Below are positions 8,198 to 30,510 of a stretch of 32,000 bases of DNA, piece after piece. Each line of letters starts with the position of its first letter. The first letter of the stretch is position 1. This stretch comes from Dickeya solani IPO 2222 (GTDB lineage: Bacteria; Pseudomonadota; Gammaproteobacteria; Enterobacterales; Enterobacteriaceae): positions 4,860,001 to 4,892,000 of the forward strand of contig NZ_CP015137.1 in assembly GCF_001644705.1 (NCBI RefSeq), in the 5' to 3' direction. Under the pieces are notes generated by a model. It saw only the letters and a list, made by a program, of their open reading frames with translations, ran no database searches and had not been told where the DNA came from. A program made the translations under genes and the position numbers.

Positions 8198-8695
8198 CGC
8201 CAGCGCATGAAACAGGTTATCAGCGATCAACGACGGAACAGTGTGATCAACGATCGCTGTGGCCTGAATACTCTGTGTTGCCCCGTCAAGGACAAGGCTC
8301 ATCACGAGCCTTGTAACACAACTGCCCTATCTGTGATTCGCCGCACCACGGCTTCGTTATTGCTCGTTCTGAGCCATGAAGGCGGCCTTCTACATCGGTT
8401 AGCATGACCATCAGTCTGTTCAGTTAGTCGCTCCTGACCCCATGGATTCCCGCTGTGAATCTTGTGGGCCAGGGACTTCTGCAACAACTCCGGACCTGAC
8501 CGTACGCCAGACCATGAATATGGCTCATGTTGTAATGAAATTAAGTCTCTTTCACTCATCCAATGACTCTGGCATAAAATATGCTGAATTAACTTATTGA
8601 CAACATGAAGACTGCTGAGTGATAAACAAACAAATCATTTAAAATCAACAAATTAATTCAGTTTTCATATCAAAATTTAGGATGCAAAGATCGCG

Positions 8696-9679
8696 ATGAA
8701 TAAAGATTTCACATTTACGATTAAGAGCAGTTGCTTCGATGAAAATTACAACCCCTCCGAAAATACGCGTATCACTACCAACTTTGCTAATTTGGCCAGA
8801 GGAACGAGGCGCCAGGAGAACTTACGCAACACTCTCGTGATGATTGATAATCGTTTCAATACACTGGCGTATTGGGATAACCCCAAAGGAGATCGTTATT
8901 CTGTCGAACTTGAAATCATTTCCGTTGAGATGAATATTGCAGTCGAAGGCAATAGCGATACCTTCCCTGTGATTGAAATATTGAAAACGAATATTGTTGA
9001 CAAAAAAACCAATGAACGCATCGAAGGCATTGTAGGGAATAATTTTTCCTCTTACGTGCGAGATTATGATTTTAGCGTATTACTCCCTGAGCACAATAAG
9101 CATCGCACCGAGTTCGGCACGCCGGATAATTTTGGCGATTTGCATGGAAAAATATTTAAATATTTCACGAGTTCAAACACTTACAAAAATAACTTTAATA
9201 AACAACCTGTTATATGCCTAAGTGTTTCAAGTAAAAACACCTATCATCGGACTGGAAATCAGCATCCTGTATTGGGCATCGAATACCAGCAAAATGACGC
9301 TTCCTTGACCGATCATTATTTCGAAAAAATGGGGTTGCAGGCCCGCTACTTTATGCCTGCAAATAGCGTTGCACCTTTAGCTTTTTATTTTTCTGGTGAT
9401 CTACTGAGTGATTACACTAATCTTGAGCTTATCAGCACTATCAGCACGATGGAGACTTTCCAAAAGATTTACCGACCTGAGATTTACAATGCTAACTCTG
9501 CAGCAGGGCAATACTATCAACCCCACCTGGATCACCAGGATCATTCATTAACAAAAATTGTTTATGACCGGGAAGAACGCAGTCAGTTGGCTATTGAGCA
9601 GGGAAAGTTTACTGAAGAGCACTTCATCAAACCCTACAAGAATATTCTTGAACAATGGTCTGCTCACTACGCGCTTTGA
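8696..9679 (+). CDS. DUF1852-domain protein (MesX-like partner of the core methionine synthase)
   Basis: 327 aa, low-GC. It lies 27 nt upstream of a ~340-aa MetE-C-terminal-like gene, which is the conserved DUF1852 + short methionine synthase pairing. I recognise the family from the size, the pairing and the sequence character, not from a computed search. Confidence 0.65.
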   Translation: MNKDFTFTIKSSCFDENYNPSENTRITTNFANLARGTRRQENLRNTLVMIDNRFNTLAYWDNPKGDRYSVELEIISVEMNIAVEGNSDTFPVIEILKTNIVDKKTNERIEGIVGNNFSSYVRDYDFSVLLPEHNKHRTEFGTPDNFGDLHGKIFKYFTSSNTYKNNFNKQPVICLSVSSKNTYHRTGNQHPVLGIEYQQNDASLTDHYFEKMGLQARYFMPANSVAPLAFYFSGDLLSDYTNLELISTISTMETFQKIYRPEIYNANSAAGQYYQPHLDHQDHSLTKIVYDREERSQLAIEQGKFTEEHFIKPYKNILEQWSAHYAL

Positions 9680-9706
9680 TTCACCAAAAAGATAAGGTCA
9701 CCTGTT

Positions 9707-10738
9707 ATGAAAACATTGCTACCCACCTCGACTGCCGGCAGTTTGCCCAAACCGTCCTGGCTCGCAGAGCCTGAGAAACTGTGGTCCCCCTGGAAATTAC
9801 AAAACGAAGAGTTAATTGAGGGGAAAAAAGATGCTCTGAGTTTGTCGCTGTTTGATCAACTGCGTGCAGGTATTGATATTGTCAGCGATGGCGAACAAAC
9901 GCGCCAACACTTTGTCACGACGTTTATTGAGCACCTTAGCGGCGTGGATTTTGAGAAACGTGAAGTCGTTAAAATTCGTAATCGCTATGACGCGAGCGTA
10001 CCGACGGTTGTCGGTGCGGTGGCGCGCCAAAAGCCCGTTTTTGTTGAAGATGCCAAATTCCTACGTCAACTCACCAGGCAACCTATTAAATGGGCTCTGC
10101 CAGGGCCGATGACGATGATCGATACGCTCTATGATAACCACTATAAAAGCCGCGAAAAACTGGCCTGGGAATTCGCCAAAATTCTCAATCAGGAAGCGAA
10201 AGAGTTAGAAGCAGCGGGTGTGGATATTATTCAGTTTGATGAGCCAGCGTTTAATGTCTTTTTTGATGAGGTGAATGATTGGGGTATCGCCGCGTTAGAA
10301 AGAGCGATTGAAGGGCTGAAATGTGAGACGGCGGTACACATCTGCTACGGATATGGCATCAAAGCCAACACCGACTGGAAAAAGACGTTGGGGTCAGAGT
10401 GGCGGCAATATGAAGAAGCGTTTCCCAAACTGCAAACATCCAATATCGATATCATCTCGCTGGAATGCCATAACTCGCGTGTTCCCATGGATCTGCTTGA
10501 ACTGATTCGCGGTAAAAAAGTGATGGTCGGGGCCATTGACGTGGCAACCAATACCGTCGAGACACCAGAAGAAGTCGCCGATACGCTACGAAAAGCACTT
10601 CAGTTTGTCGATGCCGACAAGCTCTACCCGTCGACCAACTGTGGCATGGCCCCCTTATCTCGTCGGGTAGCCACAGGCAAGCTCAATGCGTTAAGTGCAG
10701 GCGCAGAAATCATCCGCGGAGAACTCTCGGCTAAATAA
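9707..10738 (+). CDS. core-MetE type (cobalamin-independent, MetE C-terminal domain only) methionine synthase, MesD-like
   Basis: 343 aa: MKTLLPTSTAGSLPKPSWL...IVSDGEQTRQHFV...IQFDEPAF...VHICYGY...ISLECHNS...PSTNCGM. This is the UROD/MetE-like barrel with the His/Cys/Glu/Cys Zn-ligand pattern (HICYG, ECH, NCGM). It is a single-domain protein, as in the Mes families. Confidence 0.75.
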   Translation: MKTLLPTSTAGSLPKPSWLAEPEKLWSPWKLQNEELIEGKKDALSLSLFDQLRAGIDIVSDGEQTRQHFVTTFIEHLSGVDFEKREVVKIRNRYDASVPTVVGAVARQKPVFVEDAKFLRQLTRQPIKWALPGPMTMIDTLYDNHYKSREKLAWEFAKILNQEAKELEAAGVDIIQFDEPAFNVFFDEVNDWGIAALERAIEGLKCETAVHICYGYGIKANTDWKKTLGSEWRQYEEAFPKLQTSNIDIISLECHNSRVPMDLLELIRGKKVMVGAIDVATNTVETPEEVADTLRKALQFVDADKLYPSTNCGMAPLSRRVATGKLNALSAGAEIIRGELSAK

Positions 10739-12547: not shown

Positions 12548-12805
12548 ACTTCGAATGTCCTTCCGCGTGATTAATCGTTTAAAAACAATACACCAGCTTA
12601 ATATCTTTTTGCTACTGGCAGCAGCGCACTGGACACACAGAATGCACTAACGTCCTCGACATCAAAAAACAGTTTGACGGCAACCTGGACGCGCTTCATG
12701 CCCCTACCGGCGTACTCTGTTGGCACTTTGCTGCGTATTTAGCTATAAATCAGAATACATCTGGTTGCTATATCACTCAAAACAGACGCTCATGAGGGTA
12801 CTGTA

Positions 12806-13072
12806 ATGAAGCAGACTCACTCCATTCCTGAAATCTACAACCCTGATGTTCCATACGGTGCAAAATGTGAAATTATGGATCAACTGTGCCAGGCGCTGGC
12901 GAGACATAAAGGAATGGAGCGCTTCGAACTGCGTGATTACCTGTTGGAGAGGATCCACGTGGATTTCGAAAATCTGGAGAATAATCCTGTAGGGATGCTT
13001 CTGCTGTATGAATACCTACACAGCCAGCGTCCGGGAGTCTGCATCCGTTCTACGGAAAAACAGCTCAATTGA
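12806..13072 (+). CDS. hypothetical protein (88 aa, orphan)
   Basis: ATG with GAGGG 7 nt upstream, in the low-GC island. I recognise no motif. Confidence 0.4.
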   Translation: MKQTHSIPEIYNPDVPYGAKCEIMDQLCQALARHKGMERFELRDYLLERIHVDFENLENNPVGMLLLYEYLHSQRPGVCIRSTEKQLN

Positions 13073-13303
13073 TCCTCACATGTCACGTAGACATTTAATA
13101 TATAAGTATGACGGCACATCGTTATCGTGACCTAACGCGCCAATATCCCTTCTGACAGCGGCAAATCCAAAAGATGGGGCGTGTCTGCTGTGAGCAAGGA
13201 GCGGACTCTGGTAGAGTCATCTAACTCAGTCAATACTTAATCGCCCAATGCCGTGTTTTACAGACGAGTCTATAACTTATTCACTTATAGGAGGATTTAA
13301 AGG

Positions 13304-13486
13304 TTGGATACTAAAAGAAGATTAAAGCGAGCATTAAGCGCTATCGATGATGCTATGTCCACATTACAACGTGCTCGTTCTAAAGTAGAAGAAGGTCGCT
13401 CAGATATATCACGTGCTTTAAATGAGTTAGATGATGCTGAGACTAATATACGCAAAGCTATTCGTGAACTGCCTGATGATATCTAG
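13304..13486 (+). CDS. hypothetical 60-aa helical-hairpin protein with internal duplication
   Basis: TTG start 9 nt after a perfect AGGAGG (13289..13294), followed by a strong terminator. The sequence shows two related halves: RALSAIDDAMSTLQRA and RALNELDDAETNIRKA. Confidence 0.5.
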   Translation: MDTKRRLKRALSAIDDAMSTLQRARSKVEEGRSDISRALNELDDAETNIRKAIRELPDDI

Positions 13487-13497
13487 ATATAGTAGAT

Positions 13498-13526
13498 ATG
13501 GCCGCAATTCAGCGGCCATTCTTTTA
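13498..13526 (+). terminator. rho-independent terminator (ATGGCCGC-AATTCA-GCGGCCAT + TCTTTT)
   Basis: An 8-bp GC-rich stem followed by a T-run, read directly. It sits between the convergent 60-aa ORF and the HerA gene. Confidence 0.7.
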
Positions 13527-13567
13527 GTATTTTGACTATCACACCTAGCTAGCGGTGATAACTCATC

Positions 13568-15334
13568 TTATTTTCTCCAACGTTCAATAACCTTCGCGAA
13601 GACAATATCACGCCATGCTGCATTCCACTCACTATGTACTTTTACGCTCTGGGAATGTGGTTCTGGGGAAGGTAGTGGCATCTTGATCACCGCTGGCAGC
13701 AACACGGCATCGCCAACTACTACGCATTCTCCGGGAGCTAGATTAGGTAAGATTTCCGTAATCGCATTGGCATTATCTGGAAATAGTCGTCGCACGTATG
13801 ATTGATCGGCATCGTTAGTAAGACGCAGAGAAATGAAGTTGTTACACTGAGCAAATATTGTTTCCGATACTTCTGAAGGACGCTGACTTACTACCATCAG
13901 ACTTAAGCCATATTTTCGTCCCTCCTTTGCTATGCGTTCGATGGACTTCCGAGATGCCCGATATGAGGCATGATTATCTCGAGGTACATAGTTGTGCGCC
14001 TCTTCACACACCAACATAACAGGGATATCATTGAGTTTGCCAAGCGCATGCCGCAATTTAGAATAATGAAAGCAAAAATCAAAAATTAGGCGAGAAATCA
14101 AGCTTACAGTCACGCTAAGAACTTCGAACGGGACTCCACTCAAGTCGACAACAGTAACGTTCGATTTGTGGAGATAGCCAATAAATTGCTTCATTAGCGT
14201 CTCAAAGTCCTCAGTCAAATGTTCCTTCCCATCAGCTTTCTTAGTATTCAAAAGGAACCGAAGACGTTTATCAGCCAATTTCGCTTCCAACCGCGAAACA
14301 AACCTATTGAACTCTCCATTGAAAGGCCCATTAGTCGCCTTGGATGCAGCTGCGCTCGAGGTAGCAACAAAATCGTGGACTTTTTCGAAATAAATATTCC
14401 GATCAGACACCAAATCTCCATTAGCTAGCTTAGGTTTATCCTCTCCGGGTAGCCGACCAATGACCTCCCTATTCATATTTTCAATGAAGTTGTAAACCTC
14501 TTTAATCGAGAAATAAACAGGGGTGTCGTAAGTCACTTCTGGAACAGCCGGGTTATGCTTTTCTTTGTTCAGCACAACAGCATGCTTGAACTGACTAACT
14601 TGATTGTGAGAGTTCGCTTCGTTACTTTCGATAAACATACTTTCGAGTTCTTCAGAGTTCATCAGCCAGTATGGGAGTTGGAGGGAGTCAATATCTAATC
14701 GGCTCAGAGTAAAAGACTCTTCAGCCTGTAAAGTAAATGCCGCGGTATATTCATCATGAATATCAAATATCACCACATGCGAGTTATTTTGCATGTTCTT
14801 GTTGCTGTTTTTACGTTGAGATATTCCAACTATACCCTGCAACACGCTAGCAACAGTACACGACTTACCGGAACCAGTGGATCCTACAACCGCAATATGC
14901 TTACTGAAGAATCTATTACCACTGATCATAAGATTAATGGCTTTATTCATAGAAAGTTTGCCAAGAGGGAAATCATGATCACCATCAGCCGAGAATATCT
15001 TGTCTAAGGTATCATTTTCCGCAACGAATGCATGTTCAGTTGGAACCGGTAAAAGGAGACTGCTACGGTCAAAACTTTTGTCATCCACTAAAGTTCCTAT
15101 AGCTTGACATTCAATCTGGAAGTTCCAGACCGTTTTTCCGTCAGGTGTGGTTGTATTTGTACCTTTAATGTTTCGGATGGTAACGATAGTAAAATCATGA
15201 TTTCCCTGTGCAATCTTAAGAAAACGGCCAACCTGAAGATTTTCTTTATTTTTCTCAAATACTTCAAGGTTATCAACAGCAACTACGACAGCCTCTGGCG
15301 CACACGAAAGCACTGCTCCAATTTTAATAAGCAT
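13568..15334 (-). CDS. HerA/FtsK-type (DUF87-like) hexameric ATPase, defence-system motor component
   Basis: 588 aa. Walker A IAVVGSTGSGKS, Walker B-like VMLVCEEAHNYVP, then LSLMVVSQRPSEVS and FISLRLTNDADQ, as in HerA helicases. An N-terminal ~130-aa barrel-like region is present. The ATG overlaps the upstream gene by 11 nt. Confidence 0.8.
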   Translation of the reverse strand: MLIKIGAVLSCAPEAVVVAVDNLEVFEKNKENLQVGRFLKIAQGNHDFTIVTIRNIKGTNTTTPDGKTVWNFQIECQAIGTLVDDKSFDRSSLLLPVPTEHAFVAENDTLDKIFSADGDHDFPLGKLSMNKAINLMISGNRFFSKHIAVVGSTGSGKSCTVASVLQGIVGISQRKNSNKNMQNNSHVVIFDIHDEYTAAFTLQAEESFTLSRLDIDSLQLPYWLMNSEELESMFIESNEANSHNQVSQFKHAVVLNKEKHNPAVPEVTYDTPVYFSIKEVYNFIENMNREVIGRLPGEDKPKLANGDLVSDRNIYFEKVHDFVATSSAAASKATNGPFNGEFNRFVSRLEAKLADKRLRFLLNTKKADGKEHLTEDFETLMKQFIGYLHKSNVTVVDLSGVPFEVLSVTVSLISRLIFDFCFHYSKLRHALGKLNDIPVMLVCEEAHNYVPRDNHASYRASRKSIERIAKEGRKYGLSLMVVSQRPSEVSETIFAQCNNFISLRLTNDADQSYVRRLFPDNANAITEILPNLAPGECVVVGDAVLLPAVIKMPLPSPEPHSQSVKVHSEWNAAWRDIVFAKVIERWRK

Positions 15335-16502
15335 TAGTCATCCCCATCATATATTTGATTTCATCAAGTTTTTCGGCACCTAATATTTCAAGGTTTACAT
15401 CCTGTAAGTCTAAACTCGTAATATCTCCATCTCCAATTACAAAGAAATCGTCCGCCTTGGTTTCAATATAAAGATTTTTATAGTCATCCCACCGAATGAA
15501 GCGCAGAACGAACTCTTTTTTATCCTTGGTGACAATCGGATCACGAAAAAAAAACCTCCCTGAGAAAGTATTTACTGGTCGTCCAAGGTTTGGGATTACA
15601 TCCTTCCCAATTAATCGCTCCGCAATTTCATCAAATATAGATTGAGAAACATCCAATATAAAGATTGGAGTATGTGTATGCACCTGTTTAAAATGATACT
15701 TATCAACAAAAGATTTTATAAAGAGAACGATTTGTTTATCAAACTGCTCTAGGAGATCAGGGAAAATAAGTATAAATCGCAAACGAACGTTTGCATTCAG
15801 GTTTTCTTTTAATTGTTTACGTCGTGCCTCCAAAACCTTCTGACGCGTTTTTAACGCAAGAGTCCATTGAGAAACCGCTGTAGACCTAATCCGGCGTAAT
15901 GTTTCCAGAAAAAAACTCTTGGTGATTTTCCTAAGATTTTCATCATGTTTGATACTAAGATCACCAATGATCTGAATGGCGTTTGGATAGAATAGTGTTT
16001 CCACTTCACTCTTATTAAATCCTAGATCTACAAGCAGCTTTACATTTTCTTCCATCAAATCGTCATACTTTGGCGTTACCGTTATAGAAAACACCTTAAG
16101 GAATTCATTAATATCAACACCAGTAGCCTCCGCTATCAAATTTTGTAAATCTTTACTTTTAGAACTGAGGGCACCATTCAACTCTACAGCAGAAATAAGG
16201 ATTGAAGATGTATTCGGAAAATGAGCGAAAAGATGATAATTTATTTTTGCATTGGGATTTGACTTGAAATGCTTCATCATCTGAAGTAGAGGATCGTAAA
16301 GAATGCTAGGCGTATATTTAGCCTGTGCTTCATGGTATTTACACTGAATGGCCTTGGTTCCGGTAAATGTAGCGACTTCGATATCTTCGACAATCCCTTC
16401 TAAAGTAATTTCCGCCTCATCCGCTGCCTTGAGTAGTTCAGCGAGTGTTAGATTAAACTGATATAAGAACCCTTGGATAGTGTAGTCGGCTGAACGCCTC
16501 AT
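15324..16502 (-). CDS. DUF4297 / Cap4-like PD-(D/E)xK nuclease-domain protein (effector partner of HerA)
   Basis: 392 aa. The N-terminus ADYTIQGFLYQ followed by GIVEDIEV...AIQCKY gives the GFxYQ ... D/E ... QxK arrangement I associate with Cap4/DUF4297 nuclease domains. The C-terminal ~200 aa is unassigned. AAGAGG RBS. The gene is translationally coupled to the HerA gene. Confidence 0.6.
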   Translation of the reverse strand: MRRSADYTIQGFLYQFNLTLAELLKAADEAEITLEGIVEDIEVATFTGTKAIQCKYHEAQAKYTPSILYDPLLQMMKHFKSNPNAKINYHLFAHFPNTSSILISAVELNGALSSKSKDLQNLIAEATGVDINEFLKVFSITVTPKYDDLMEENVKLLVDLGFNKSEVETLFYPNAIQIIGDLSIKHDENLRKITKSFFLETLRRIRSTAVSQWTLALKTRQKVLEARRKQLKENLNANVRLRFILIFPDLLEQFDKQIVLFIKSFVDKYHFKQVHTHTPIFILDVSQSIFDEIAERLIGKDVIPNLGRPVNTFSGRFFFRDPIVTKDKKEFVLRFIRWDDYKNLYIETKADDFFVIGDGDITSLDLQDVNLEILGAEKLDEIKYMMGMTNAY

Positions 16503-16956
16503 TTAAATAAACCTCTTTAAGTCTAAAAACGCTAAACTCCAGAATTACTTACACATAGGCTAACACTATAAGCCCACCGTTTAGATTCTGCTAGCCTGGC
16601 AGCATGCTAATGATCGCACTTTATGGAATTTAATCCTCAGAGATAGGGGGATTAGCAAAAGTTGACAATTGACTTTGGCTAAATCTGTATAGCGATCATG
16701 TTTATAACGAACTGTATTTGATAGTTAACCCATGGCCCCTGACGCACATACCGAGGTAACCCAATACGTATAACAAATAAGCTAAACTGCACTTATTCTT
16801 CATCGTTGCGCTAAATTCAATAGCTTTGAGAGGCCCGCTCCTGACACTTAACCGCCATCAGAAATAATCACACCGAATATAATATCCAATTAAAATTAAT
16901 TAGAGACTAATACAATACCTCTGATTTATAAAACAACCCACCATCCCACTATAGAC

Positions 16957-17139
16957 CGTTATAAAAAAAGCCCCCAACCATCAGACCAGGGGCTTTTGAA
17001 TACCATTCAAATCACGGCAGAACACGGCGGCGAAAATCTCGACGATTTCGGCGTGAGTCACTTTTTCTGGGTGATCAGACCGCTGGCATCTTTTAACATA
17101 TTTGCCACCAGCAAGAAGCTATCTCTTCTGAGATACCGT
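16957..17139. repeat. diverged direct-repeat copy A of the ADH 3' end + terminator
   Basis: By eye this aligns with 17814..17998. I estimate about 85% identity in the terminator and last ~25 codons, decaying further in. The estimate is not computed. Confidence 0.75.
17017..17139 (-). pseudogene. 3' fragment (about 41 codons) of an iron-type alcohol dehydrogenase gene
   Basis: The minus strand translates to ...[41 protein letters not shown]. The intact gene's C-terminus is ...[39 protein letters not shown]. The stop codon is replaced by TGC. There is no upstream coding continuation, because it abuts the doc stop codon. Confidence 0.7.
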
Positions 17140-17517
17140 TTATTTTTCCACCCGTTGTCTTAATTGTTCGGCGAGTTCCGACACCAGGCATTCTCCGGTT
17201 GCCGCCTTAATGGTGAGTTCTTCCAGCGAATTATCGTTATCGACAATCAATATGCCATTGCGGCGCAAAAATGTCATGGTAACAAAAAAAGCAGTGCGTT
17301 TATTGCCATCATTAAAAATATGACCACGAGCAATAGTTACCCAATACGTCGCCGCCAACTCAAACAGTTCGGTCACACCTTCATAATAAAGACGGTTTTG
17401 TACTCGATAAATCAACTCCTCAGCCCGACCCGGATCAGCCATACCCACCACACCAGGCAACACCTGCAAAATACGATCATGGAAGTCAATGACGTCCTGC
17501 GCACTCACCCATTTCAT
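17140..17517 (-). CDS. doc: Doc toxin (Fic/Doc family kinase, death-on-curing)
   Basis: 125 aa with the Fic/Doc motif HIFNDGNKRTA. It has a 4-nt ATGA overlap with the upstream antitoxin gene. Confidence 0.9.
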   Translation of the reverse strand: MKWVSAQDVIDFHDRILQVLPGVVGMADPGRAEELIYRVQNRLYYEGVTELFELAATYWVTIARGHIFNDGNKRTAFFVTMTFLRRNGILIVDNDNSLEELTIKAATGECLVSELAEQLRQRVEK

Positions 17518-17735
17518 CTGTCGGCGAGCGCTTTGATTGTGTGTCCGTGGCGCTGCATGATGAAATCGAATTCAGCGTCTAATCTGGCTTTCTGATAAGC
17601 CTCAAACTCTGCTTTGGGGATGAGTACAGCCGAGGTGCCATCCCGACGCTTAATCTCTACCGGCTCACCGCTGGCCGCCGTATCAATGACTGTCGCAATA
17701 TTTTGCCGGGCTTCAGTAATGGTATAAGTCTTCAT
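17514..17735 (-). CDS. phd: Phd/YefM-family antitoxin
   Basis: 73 aa. MKTYTITEARQNIATVIDTAASGEPVEIKRRDGTSAVLIPKAEFEAY is a typical Phd/YefM N-terminal fold. It is translationally coupled to doc. Confidence 0.85.
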   Translation of the reverse strand: MKTYTITEARQNIATVIDTAASGEPVEIKRRDGTSAVLIPKAEFEAYQKARLDAEFDFIMQRHGHTIKALADR

Positions 17736-17813: not shown

Positions 17814-17998
17814 CGTTATAAAAAAAAGCCCCCAACCATCAGGCCGGGGGCTTTTCAATACCATCCAAATCACAATCAGAACGCGGCGGCGAAAATCTCG
17901 ACGATTTCAGCGTGAGTCGCTTTTTTCGGGTTGGTCAGACCGCAGGCGTCTTTCAGCGCGTTGTCCGCCAGAATGCTGAAGTCTTCTTCTTTCACGCC
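17814..17998. repeat. direct-repeat copy B (functional 3' end + terminator of the ADH gene)
   Basis: Partner of 16957..17139. The two copies bracket the 674-bp phd-doc cassette (17140..17813). Confidence 0.75.
17819..17856 (-). terminator. rho-independent terminator of the ADH gene
   Basis: Stem AGCCCCC (17827..17833) / GGGGGCT (17846..17852). On the minus strand it is followed by a T8 run. It lies about 20 nt after the ADH stop. Confidence 0.8.
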
Positions 17999-29118: not shown

Positions 29119-30510
29119 TCAGGAACGGGTTTTACGTCCGTAACACAGCCAGGTGATAACCACACAGGCAATGTAGAACACCACGAAGATCTTCATCGCG
29201 CCGGCCGGCGAGCCGGTCATCGCCAGCGATGTGCCGAACGCTTTCGGGATGAAAAAGCCGCCGATAGCGCCGATGGCGGAGATGAATCCCAATGCCGCGG
29301 CGGTATCGGTCACCGCGCTGCGCTGCGCTTCGTCTTCGCCGCCGCCCTCTGAGGTCACCCTCTCTACCGTCAGCCCGCGGAAAATCACCGCGATCATCTG
29401 GAAGGTCGACCCGCTCCCCAGTCCGGCCGTCAAAAACAACAGCATGAAGATACCAAAAAACAGCAGGAAGGAGCCGGGCTGATTGTCACCCGGCAACGCG
29501 GTGAACAACAACACTGACAAGATCGCCATGAACACAAAATTGATCAGCGTCACCCGCACGCCGCCAAAGCGGTCCGACAGCATGCCGCCCACCGGGCGCG
29601 CCAGCGCCCCTAACAGCGGACCGCAAAAGGCGTAATGCAGGATAATCACATCCGGGAACTGGGTTTTCGATAGCATGGCGAAACCGGCGGAAAAACCGAT
29701 AAAAGAGCCGAACGCCGACAGATACAGTACGCTGAGGATCCACAGGTGCGCCCGCTTGAGCACCGGCAACTGCTGACGTAGCGACGCTTTGGCGGTGGAC
29801 AGATCGTTCATACCGAACCAGGCCGCCGCCGCCGCGATAAGCAGTAGCGGCACCCACACCCAGGGCGCATTCTGCAACCAGACCTGACCGCCGTCCGGCT
29901 GCGCCACGCCATTGCCGGTAAAACTCAGCACCGGCAGAAAAATCACTACCGGCACCAGCAACTGCATCACGCTGACGCCGAGATTACCGAAACCGCCATT
30001 CAGGCCCAGCGCGCTGCCCTGCTGCGCCTTCGGGAAAAAGAAGCTGATGTTGGCCATGCTGGAAGCGAAATTGGCGCCGGCGAACCCGCACAGCAACGAG
30101 ATAATAATGAATACGTTGTAGGGCGTTTGCGGATCCTGCACCACGAACCCCAGCCACACGCACGGGATGATCAGAATCAGCGTACTGAAGGTGGTCCAGC
30201 GGCGTCCGCCCGCCAGCGGAATAATAAACGAATACGGCACCCGCAGCAGCGCGCCGGATACCGACGGCAAGGCGGTCAACATAAACAGCTGATCGGTGGT
30301 GAAATGGAACCCAACTTTGTTCAGATTGACGGCCACGGTGCTGAACAACATCCAGACACAGAAAGCCAGCAACAGACAAGGAATTGAAATCCACAGGTTG
30401 CGCTGGGCAATGCCCCGCCCCTGTTTTTGCCAGAACTGAACGTCTTCCGGGCGCCAATCCCGGATAACAGTCTGTCGTGAATCGCCTGGCGTAATGGTTG
30501 ACTGCGTCAT
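29119..30510 (-). CDS. narK: nitrate/nitrite antiporter (MFS)
   Basis: 463 aa. DWRPEDVQFWQKQGRGIAQRNLWISIPCLLLAFCVWMLFSTVAVNLNKVGFHFTTDQLFMLTALPSVSGALLRVPYSF is almost colinear with E. coli NarK. Confidence 0.95.
   Translation of the reverse strand: MTQSTITPGDSRQTVIRDWRPEDVQFWQKQGRGIAQRNLWISIPCLLLAFCVWMLFSTVAVNLNKVGFHFTTDQLFMLTALPSVSGALLRVPYSFIIPLAGGRRWTTFSTLILIIPCVWLGFVVQDPQTPYNVFIIISLLCGFAGANFASSMANISFFFPKAQQGSALGLNGGFGNLGVSVMQLLVPVVIFLPVLSFTGNGVAQPDGGQVWLQNAPWVWVPLLLIAAAAAWFGMNDLSTAKASLRQQLPVLKRAHLWILSVLYLSAFGSFIGFSAGFAMLSKTQFPDVIILHYAFCGPLLGALARPVGGMLSDRFGGVRVTLINFVFMAILSVLLFTALPGDNQPGSFLLFFGIFMLLFLTAGLGSGSTFQMIAVIFRGLTVERVTSEGGGEDEAQRSAVTDTAAALGFISAIGAIGGFFIPKAFGTSLAMTGSPAGAMKIFVVFYIACVVITWLCYGRKTRS

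Follow-up and report, generated by a model that had tools for sequence, protein, structure and literature searches.

Gene organisation of the locus

The stretch analysed here (32,000 nucleotides (nt) of the Dickeya solani IPO 2222 genome, contig NZ_CP015137.1, positions 4,860,001 to 4,892,000; henceforth called the window) carries two adjacent, co-oriented genes on its minus strand, in the order DUF4297 then HerA. The DUF4297 gene (15324..16502, minus strand) encodes a protein of 392 amino acids (aa), assigned from its open reading frame (ORF) and from profile, PDB, and fold matches as a probable fusion of a Cap4-like PD-(D/E)xK nuclease with an oligomerisation domain at the C-terminus, and the HerA gene (13568..15334, minus strand) encodes a 588-aa protein with Pfam DUF87, PADLOC, NCBIfam, and PDB matches to hexameric HerA ATPases/translocases. 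The DUF4297-HerA anti-phage system has been characterised before, and the locus is in all likelihood an intact and ordinary copy of it. The HerA start codon (ATG, 15334..15332) precedes the DUF4297 stop codon (TAA, 15326..15324), resulting in an 11-nt overlap of both genes (15324..15334, minus strand; junction sequence ...AATGCTTATTAA), by which their translation would be coupled. Neither ORF is a chance occurrence, because PDB sequence matches reach E-values of 6e-71 for the DUF4297 protein and 8e-229 for HerA.

The lowest GC content of the window (0.373, positions 15001-16000) falls into the gene pair and lies narrowly under that of a second region (0.381, positions 8501-9500). GC content at third codon positions was 0.34 for DUF4297 and 0.39 for HerA versus 0.60-0.74 for the flanking housekeeping genes. 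The DUF4297 protein carries the motifs GFLYQ (residues 11-15), EDIEV (39-43), and QCK (53-55), and HerA carries GSTGSGKS (151-158), LVCEEAH (441-447), and VVSQRPS (481-487). The original prediction, made from the nucleotide sequence of the window, had described two minus-strand ORFs of 392 and 588 aa overlapping by 11 nt, and both the coordinates and the motifs it quoted for the two proteins were recovered exactly; its description of the pair as the most AT-rich part of the window holds as well, if only by the narrow difference given above.

Family assignment of the two proteins

PADLOC was used as a collection of individual profile models, outside its system-calling rules. Its DUF4297 model PDLC02187 matched the 392-aa protein with an E-value of 1.2e-42, and the HerA model PDLC02188, which forms a cognate pair with PDLC02187, matched the 588-aa protein with an E-value of 1.8e-170. 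The best NCBIfam matches were NF042945 for the 392-aa protein (DUF4297_antiphage, “DUF4297 family anti-phage-associated protein”; 170.8 bits) and NF042944 for the 588-aa protein (HerA_antiphage_2, “anti-phage-associated helicase HerA”; 620.7 bits). In Pfam, the central domain of HerA matched DUF87 (E-value 4e-29).

Searches against the PDB returned full-length matches for both proteins, i.e., 9c1m_A (E-value 6e-71), 8ziq_A (8e-65), and 8xav_G (2.5e-18) for DUF4297 as well as 9c1m_M (8e-229), 8ziq_M (6e-221), and 8xau_A (1.5e-130) for HerA. Residues 3-588 of HerA align end to end with residues 1-582 of 9c1m_M at 57% identity, so that the HerA-type match anticipated for the 588-aa protein by the original prediction was obtained from Pfam, PADLOC, and the PDB alike. 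The DUF4297 protein is 40% identical to the Bacillus protein of 9c1m and about 35% identical to the 8ziq protein (counted from the alignments), with its N-terminal stretch alone matching 9c1m_A at an E-value of 1.7e-27. The E. coli structures were matched far more weakly than 9c1m and 8ziq by both window proteins, and judged by sequence the locus belongs with the clade of the Bacillus (9c1m) and 8ziq systems, not with the E. coli-type clade. The 392-aa protein additionally had a weak match to the PADLOC LmuA model (E-value 2e-8), which is probably due to a common nuclease fold.

Domain architecture, predicted fold, and active site

Based on the alignments, the DUF4297 protein is divided into a putative nuclease domain including the start of the linker (approximately aa 1-205; 15888..16502, minus strand), which harbors the predicted catalytic residues D40, Q53, K55, and E58, and an alpha/beta oligomerisation domain at the C-terminus (approximately aa 236-392; 15327..15797, minus strand), which was delimited by alignment to 9c1m_A, the structural model, and Foldseek. 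Residues 127-389 align to residues 166-433 of 9c1m_A with an E-value of 1.2e-41. An AlphaFold2 model of the protein, built on a 20-sequence family alignment, had a mean predicted local distance difference test score (pLDDT) of 81.7 and was matched by Foldseek to full-length 8ziq_A with a template modelling (TM) score of 0.83 over 394 columns. The C-terminal half of the model, in which a beta-alpha-beta sandwich is predicted, matched the chains of 8ziq, 8zir, and 9c5x that consist only of the C-terminal domain (CTD) with target-normalised TM scores (TMt) of 0.84-0.89 (0.88-0.89 for 8ziq_B and 9c5x_A). The domain called CTD by An et al. (PMC11291478) is the “UFO” oligomerisation domain of Rish et al. 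(10.1101/2024.10.24.620088); it forms the two DUF4297 layers, of six members each, and touches the barrel of HerA (PMC11291478; 10.1101/2024.10.24.620088). Judged by alignment and model, the C-terminal half of the window protein is thus the family's own oligomerisation domain. In the original prediction this half had been left unassigned and taken as a hint of a divergent family member, a suggestion that is not borne out: the half belongs to what defines the family and is therefore no sign of divergence.

For the E. coli system, the substitutions D40A, Q53A, and K55A in DUF4297 and K157A in HerA abolish nuclease activity and defence (An et al., PMC11291478), and D40, Q53, K55, and K157 are found under the same numbering in the window proteins. 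Residues without which the Bacillus system loses activity or defence in the mutagenesis of Rish et al. (10.1101/2024.10.24.620088) are K149, E438/E439, E25, H44, and E92 in HerA (BsHerA) and D41, E59, K61, R337, and D412 in DUF4297 (BsDUF). In the alignments, the latter correspond to D40, E58, Q60, R296, and D368 of the window DUF4297 protein, with the interface residues R337 and D412 kept as R296 and D368. For HerA, K149 corresponds to the Walker A residue K157 and E438/E439 to the Walker B residues E444/E445, all of which are kept, as are E25, H44, and E92 (E27, H46, and E100 in the window protein), which contact DUF4297 and for which a role in DUF4297 binding is ascribed to Rish et al. in a review. 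Judging from its sequence, the 588-aa HerA would comprise a HAS barrel, a RecA-like core, a helix bundle, and a C-terminal hook. The central proposal of the original prediction, a DUF4297-HerA anti-phage pair, is therefore upheld by profile, sequence, fold, and residue-level evidence.

Distribution, gene linkage, and selection

Both exact proteins were found in Dickeya solani on approximately 38-40 contigs, where they are named “hypothetical protein” and “ATP-binding protein.” A protein search with DUF4297 yielded 938 relatives at an E-value of at most 1e-5; the best 120 of these are nearly all 392 aa long, 66-91% identical to the window protein, and come from Pectobacterium, Yersinia, Erwinia, Citrobacter, Cedecea, Pseudomonas, Burkholderia, Bordetella, and other genera. 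Gene linkage was determined for a sample of 24 loci from representative genomes of other species, and HerA directly followed DUF4297 in 24 of 24. The start offset giving the 11-nt overlap (the HerA match beginning 8 nt ahead of the point at which the DUF4297 match ends) recurred at 19 of the 24 loci; the exceptions were L018 and the distant loci L027, L028, and L030, at which the protein match begins at query residue 4-5, and L026, at which the DUF4297 gene is incomplete. Across the 21 loci of the close clade, identity of HerA (83-96%) was consistently above that of DUF4297 (68-89%). No third gene was consistently linked to the pair across the 24 loci, which agrees with the system lacking a third conserved gene in the description by Rish et al. 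(10.1101/2024.10.24.620088).

Compared with the Cedecea copy, omega (the ratio of non-synonymous to synonymous substitution rates) was 0.13 for DUF4297 and 0.06 for HerA, and both genes are under purifying selection. Copies of the pair were also found on plasmids, one of them among genes of an integrative and conjugative element (ICE) on a Pantoea plasmid, a context in keeping with cargo carried by a mobile element. A search of a phage collection with the DUF4297 protein gave no match. In E. coli genomes, searched at megablast sensitivity, DNA of the clade was absent save for a 254-bp segment containing orf60 (see below), and a literature search returned nothing relevant on HerA in Dickeya solani.

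In two D. solani assemblies, GCA_000400565.1 (L003/L006) and GCA_013334165.1 (L004/L037), the DUF4297 and HerA gene calls are split or truncated. The breaks in L003 coincide with 100-bp coordinate gaps, and a few indels, scattered along the sequence, set L004 apart from the window, with unrelated neighbors, e.g., an alcohol dehydrogenase (ADH) gene, being split there too. Pseudogenes in L003 and L004 were hence rejected, as the breaks most likely stem from gaps in the scaffolds and from erroneous indels instead of genuine disruption.

Low-GC island and its chromosomal slot

Comparison of the window with the corresponding loci of two other Dickeya genomes (L007 and L035) delimits a strain-variable low-GC island of 4,237 bp (12728..16964, GC 0.40) that contains the gene pair. 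At L007, the island is replaced by 1,498 bp with a gene for a 463-aa Schlafen/AlbA_2 and HATPase_c_4 protein (L007:10062-11453). At L035 (GCA_000147055.1, which we take to be Dickeya dadantii 3937), it is replaced by about 2.3 kb encoding a ParA/CbiA-like ATPase and a SIR2_2 protein (L035:7821-9766), the latter matching ThsA-type SIR2 models with an E-value of 3e-25. All three cargos of the slot are low in GC (0.36-0.40). The left junction lies at 12727|12728 in both comparisons, and the right junction adjoins the end of the hairpin at 16968-17000 when the window is compared with L007 and falls at approximately 16857 when it is compared with L035. A 463-aa ORF elsewhere in the window (29119..30510) was considered as a counterpart of the L007 cargo; it is equal in length but encodes an unrelated major facilitator superfamily transporter and was rejected.

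The slot lies between a Phd-Doc pair and a glutathione S-transferase gene and, with a content that varies between strains and a toxin-antitoxin pair at its side, is typical of defence hotspots. The original prediction had spoken of an unusual genomic context; since strain-variable hotspots beside toxin-antitoxin pairs are typical for defence genes, the context is not unusual. Only short, chance-level matches were found in the search for flanking direct or inverted repeats across the island; neither a tRNA gene nor an Rfam family reaching its gathering score was found in scans of the window, and no integrase gene was present among the ORFs and gene lists inspected.

A segment of the island (13210..16848) is common to Cedecea neteri (L008), the nearest relative, at 90% DNA identity. 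It comprises the 346 bp upstream of DUF4297 (16503..16848, minus strand), a non-coding region presumed to hold the promoter or other regulatory sequences, both genes, and the convergent orf60 (13304..13486, plus strand), an ORF that starts with TTG and encodes 60 aa of coiled-coil type in which a 28-aa unit is repeated. With hosts that are more distant, homology at the DNA level does not extend beyond the ends of the two genes. Between HerA and orf60, which converge, a terminator scan returned a GC-rich hairpin (13498..13519) that may act as a terminator: read on the plus strand it is terminator-like, with the T-tract on the orf60 side, and the minus-strand RNA is predicted to form an 8-bp stem with no U-tract after it.

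Comparison with known systems

The system of Bacillus sp. HMH5848 (9c1m, 9c1n, 9c1x, and 9c5x; Rish et al., 10.1101/2024.10.24.620088) shares the full-length two-protein architecture with the window pair at the identities given above (57% for HerA and 40% for DUF4297), including the Walker A and B residues, the interface residues, and BsDUF D41 and E59. It differs in a DUF4297 protein that exceeds that of the window by about 40 aa and carries an insert between nuclease core and linker, in K61 in place of Q60 of the window protein, and in its host, the window host being a Gram-negative plant pathogen. The DUF4297-HerA system of 8ziq, 8zir, and 8zit was the best structural match (TM 0.83) and was matched over the full length by both proteins (DUF4297 E-value 8e-65, HerA 6e-221), although its DUF4297 protein is only about 35% identical to that of the window; these structures are said, going by the reference list of a review, to be those of Tang et al. 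2025.

The E. coli DUF4297-HerA system (8xau-8xay and 8zgi; An et al., Cell Res 2024, PMC11291478), which was discovered by Gao et al. 2020 as cited in PMC11291478, protects against lambda and P1 and shows abortive DNA degradation (PMC11291478). It is like the window pair in system type and in the residue numbering of D40, Q53, and K55 (DUF4297) and K157 (HerA), and differs as a member of a distant clade, with the DUF4297 proteins matching at an E-value of 2.5e-18 and about 17-21% identity in fold alignments, and the HerA proteins at 1.5e-130.

Three further systems share single components with the pair. SIR2-HerA (8j4u, 8su9) has a homologous HerA hexamer and, according to a review, a 12:6 architecture; its effector is a SIR2 NADase, and its HerA is far more distant (E-value 7.6e-33 versus 8e-229). 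The Cap4 nuclease of the cyclic-oligonucleotide-based anti-phage signalling system (CBASS; 6wan) has a related N-terminal nuclease fold and a D...QxK site (Rish et al., 10.1101/2024.10.24.620088). The DUF4297 model matched 6wan_F only weakly in Foldseek (E-value 2.6e-3, TM 0.21), and Cap4 is activated by a cyclic oligonucleotide, whereas the window system would, by analogy, be activated by HerA-driven assembly. In archaeal HerA-NurA (4d2i), a HerA-type hexameric translocase likewise feeds DNA to a bound nuclease; NurA is an unrelated nuclease with a repair role, and the sequence match to this HerA is weak (E-value 4e-25). According to An et al. (PMC11291478), the archaeal complex has neither the C-terminal hook nor the helix-bundle insertion.

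Other identities for the locus were considered and rejected. SIR2-HerA was rejected as the 392-aa protein had no SIR2 match in Pfam or PADLOC. For a CBASS Cap4, the protein has no SAVED sensor domain, its C-terminus being the DUF4297 CTD, and there is no cGAS/DncV-like nucleotidyltransferase (CD-NTase) among the neighboring genes. For Lamassu (LmuA/LmuB), the partner is HerA, and the island contains no structural maintenance of chromosomes (SMC) gene.

Proposed mechanism

We regard it as very probable, by analogy with the homologues, that the intact pair is a functional DUF4297-HerA abortive-infection system that was acquired horizontally by Dickeya solani. Gene pair, architecture, fold, residue conservation, purifying selection, and mobility of the module are taken from this analysis, and the 12:6 assembly, the nuclease and ATPase activities, and the abortive phenotype from the homologues. 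In the latter, each protein by itself is nearly inactive, HerA then forming a split hexamer, and together they degrade double-stranded DNA (dsDNA) regardless of its sequence or source, resulting in DNA-free cells and abortive infection (PMC11291478; 10.1101/2024.10.24.620088).

By analogy with 9c1m, 8ziq, and 8xav, six HerA subunits would form a ring, on the N-terminal barrel face of which twelve DUF4297 proteins would be stacked in two layers, joined by their CTDs. This assembly of 12 DUF4297 and 6 HerA subunits (approximately 1 MDa) would flatten the HerA ring and thereby switch on ATP hydrolysis (K157, E444/E445), and it would also dimerise the nuclease domains of the top layer into clamp-shaped dimers. 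The dsDNA would then pass through the channel in the center of the complex and be cleaved without specificity by the D40/Q53/K55 site, so that phage and host DNA would both be destroyed and the infected cell would die without phage release. Among the phage countermeasures that have been reported are a kinase (JSS1_004 type) and a Gam-like protein.

Assessment of the assignment and alternative explanations

Several observations weigh against a functional DUF4297-HerA system at this locus. Pfam-A returned no family for the 392-aa protein at an E-value of up to 1, and in particular neither DUF4297 nor Cap4, and both proteins missed the NCBIfam equivalog cut-offs (170.8 versus 300 bits for DUF4297 and 620.7 versus 850 bits for HerA). 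Scanning of the region upstream of DUF4297 for sigma-70 promoters gave no minus-strand site of at least 9/12, and counts were not above those of shuffled controls. Finally, Q60 (16323..16325) in place of BsDUF K61 is the sole mismatch among the mutagenised residues, and K61 was named part of the catalytic triad by Rish et al. (10.1101/2024.10.24.620088). The missing Pfam match is explained by the sensitivity of the model, not by absence of the domain. From both scores lying under the NCBIfam cut-offs it follows that the clade is distinct from the E. coli-type one, which NF042945 and NF042944 probably represent; judged by sequence, the locus falls within the system type and outside the narrow clade of these two models. 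The original prediction was to be abandoned if the 392-aa protein had no significant profile match to Cap4/DUF4297-type nucleases, and in this regard Pfam and the NCBIfam cut-offs spoke against it while the PADLOC and PDB matches were decisive in its favor. In the 20-sequence alignment, which extends down to 35% identity, D40, Q53, C54, K55, and E58 are the same in all sequences and the column of K61 varies freely, which suggests that the conserved active site consists of D...QxK plus E58.

The low GC content and the lack of a consensus promoter upstream would also be expected of a silent or decaying passenger, i.e., an AT-rich island that is unexpressed or non-functional in D. solani, as would the split and truncated gene calls in some D. 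solani assemblies. Such a copy is very unlikely because the ORFs are intact, all catalytic residues are kept, and omega is well below 1; moreover, the disruptions are most likely assembly artefacts, the exact proteins being present on approximately 38-40 contigs. A role in DNA repair or transfer, either in end resection of the HerA-NurA type or as a conjugative translocase of the FtsK/TraB type, would accord with the weak matches of HerA to archaeal repair HerA (NCBIfam E-value 3e-37; 4d2i E-value 4e-25) and to FtsK/TrwB/TraB, and with the relative among ICE genes on the Pantoea plasmid. The anti-phage HerA models, however, score about 150 orders of magnitude better, the partner is DUF4297 instead of NurA, Mre11, or Rad50, the window contains no conjugation genes, and no NurA gene lies nearby, all of which renders this role barely credible.

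It was also considered whether the system has a third component, with orf60 acting as a regulator or immunity factor. This ORF is 90% conserved and takes the same position downstream of HerA in Cedecea and Providencia, lies inside the segment common to Cedecea, and has an omega of 0.2-0.3. This value rests on only about 14 substitutions, though, the ORF has a TTG start and no family match, and it was not found at the other 22 of the 24 loci nor annotated beside the Pantoea plasmid copy. It does occur in an E. coli chromosome without DUF4297-HerA detectable by megablast, flanked by an IS3 element and a serine recombinase gene, and the two-gene composition reported by Rish et al. (10.1101/2024.10.24.620088) speaks against it as well, so that a function of orf60 in the system is highly improbable. 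Beyond the assignment of the pair as a DUF4297-HerA system, the slot, which takes three unrelated cargos and has one and the same left junction in both comparisons, could be a site-specific exchange point for defence cassettes and, separately, the proteobacterial clade of 392/588-aa proteins could differ from the characterised systems in trigger or regulation; we consider this unlikely. As no integrase gene, tRNA gene, or flanking repeat came to light in the searches above, an exchange point, if true, would hint at an unrecognised insertion mechanism as opposed to homologous recombination through the conserved flanks.

Significance and annotation of the clade

The pair adds one more defence system to the inventory of the potato pathogen Dickeya solani. 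Phages applied against this pathogen could have a narrower host range because of it, provided that it acts on Dickeya phages. Nothing new on the mechanism follows from the analysis; its practical points are a well-defined Dickeya hotspot beside Phd-Doc and an annotation gap, as the DUF4297-HerA clade is widespread among proteobacteria and poorly annotated. Plasmid copies of the clade (hits H1-H12) are named “hypothetical protein” and “ATP-binding protein” in RefSeq, and distant plasmid relatives (approximately 29-30% identical, over the N-terminal ~250 residues only) are named “DUF4297 family anti-phage-associated protein.” Owing to the gap in Pfam, the scores below the NCBIfam cut-offs, and the vague database names, annotation-based surveys could undercount the system.

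Neighboring elements

The island is adjoined by the Phd-Doc toxin-antitoxin cassette (17140..17735). This cassette is bracketed by a direct repeat of about 150 bp (16963-17111 and 17821-17971; 91-92% identical over the first ~110 nt), the unit of which is made up of the 3' end and the terminator hairpin of the Fe-ADH/L-threonine dehydrogenase gene, and which includes a remnant ORF (16981..17061, minus strand). Phd-Doc looks like an insertion of approximately 859 bp that duplicated its target. At L035, an IS3-type element is located between the ADH gene and Phd.

Within the island but outside the segment common to Cedecea lies orf88 (12806..13072, plus strand), an 88-aa ORF that is a called gene in D. 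solani assemblies and had no match in Pfam, PADLOC, or PHROG. A second low-GC patch of the window (8696..10738, plus strand; GC 0.40-0.49) encodes the putative oxygenase MesX (Pfam E-value 9e-190) and a protein similar to cobalamin-independent methionine synthase, and is present in all Dickeya loci examined.

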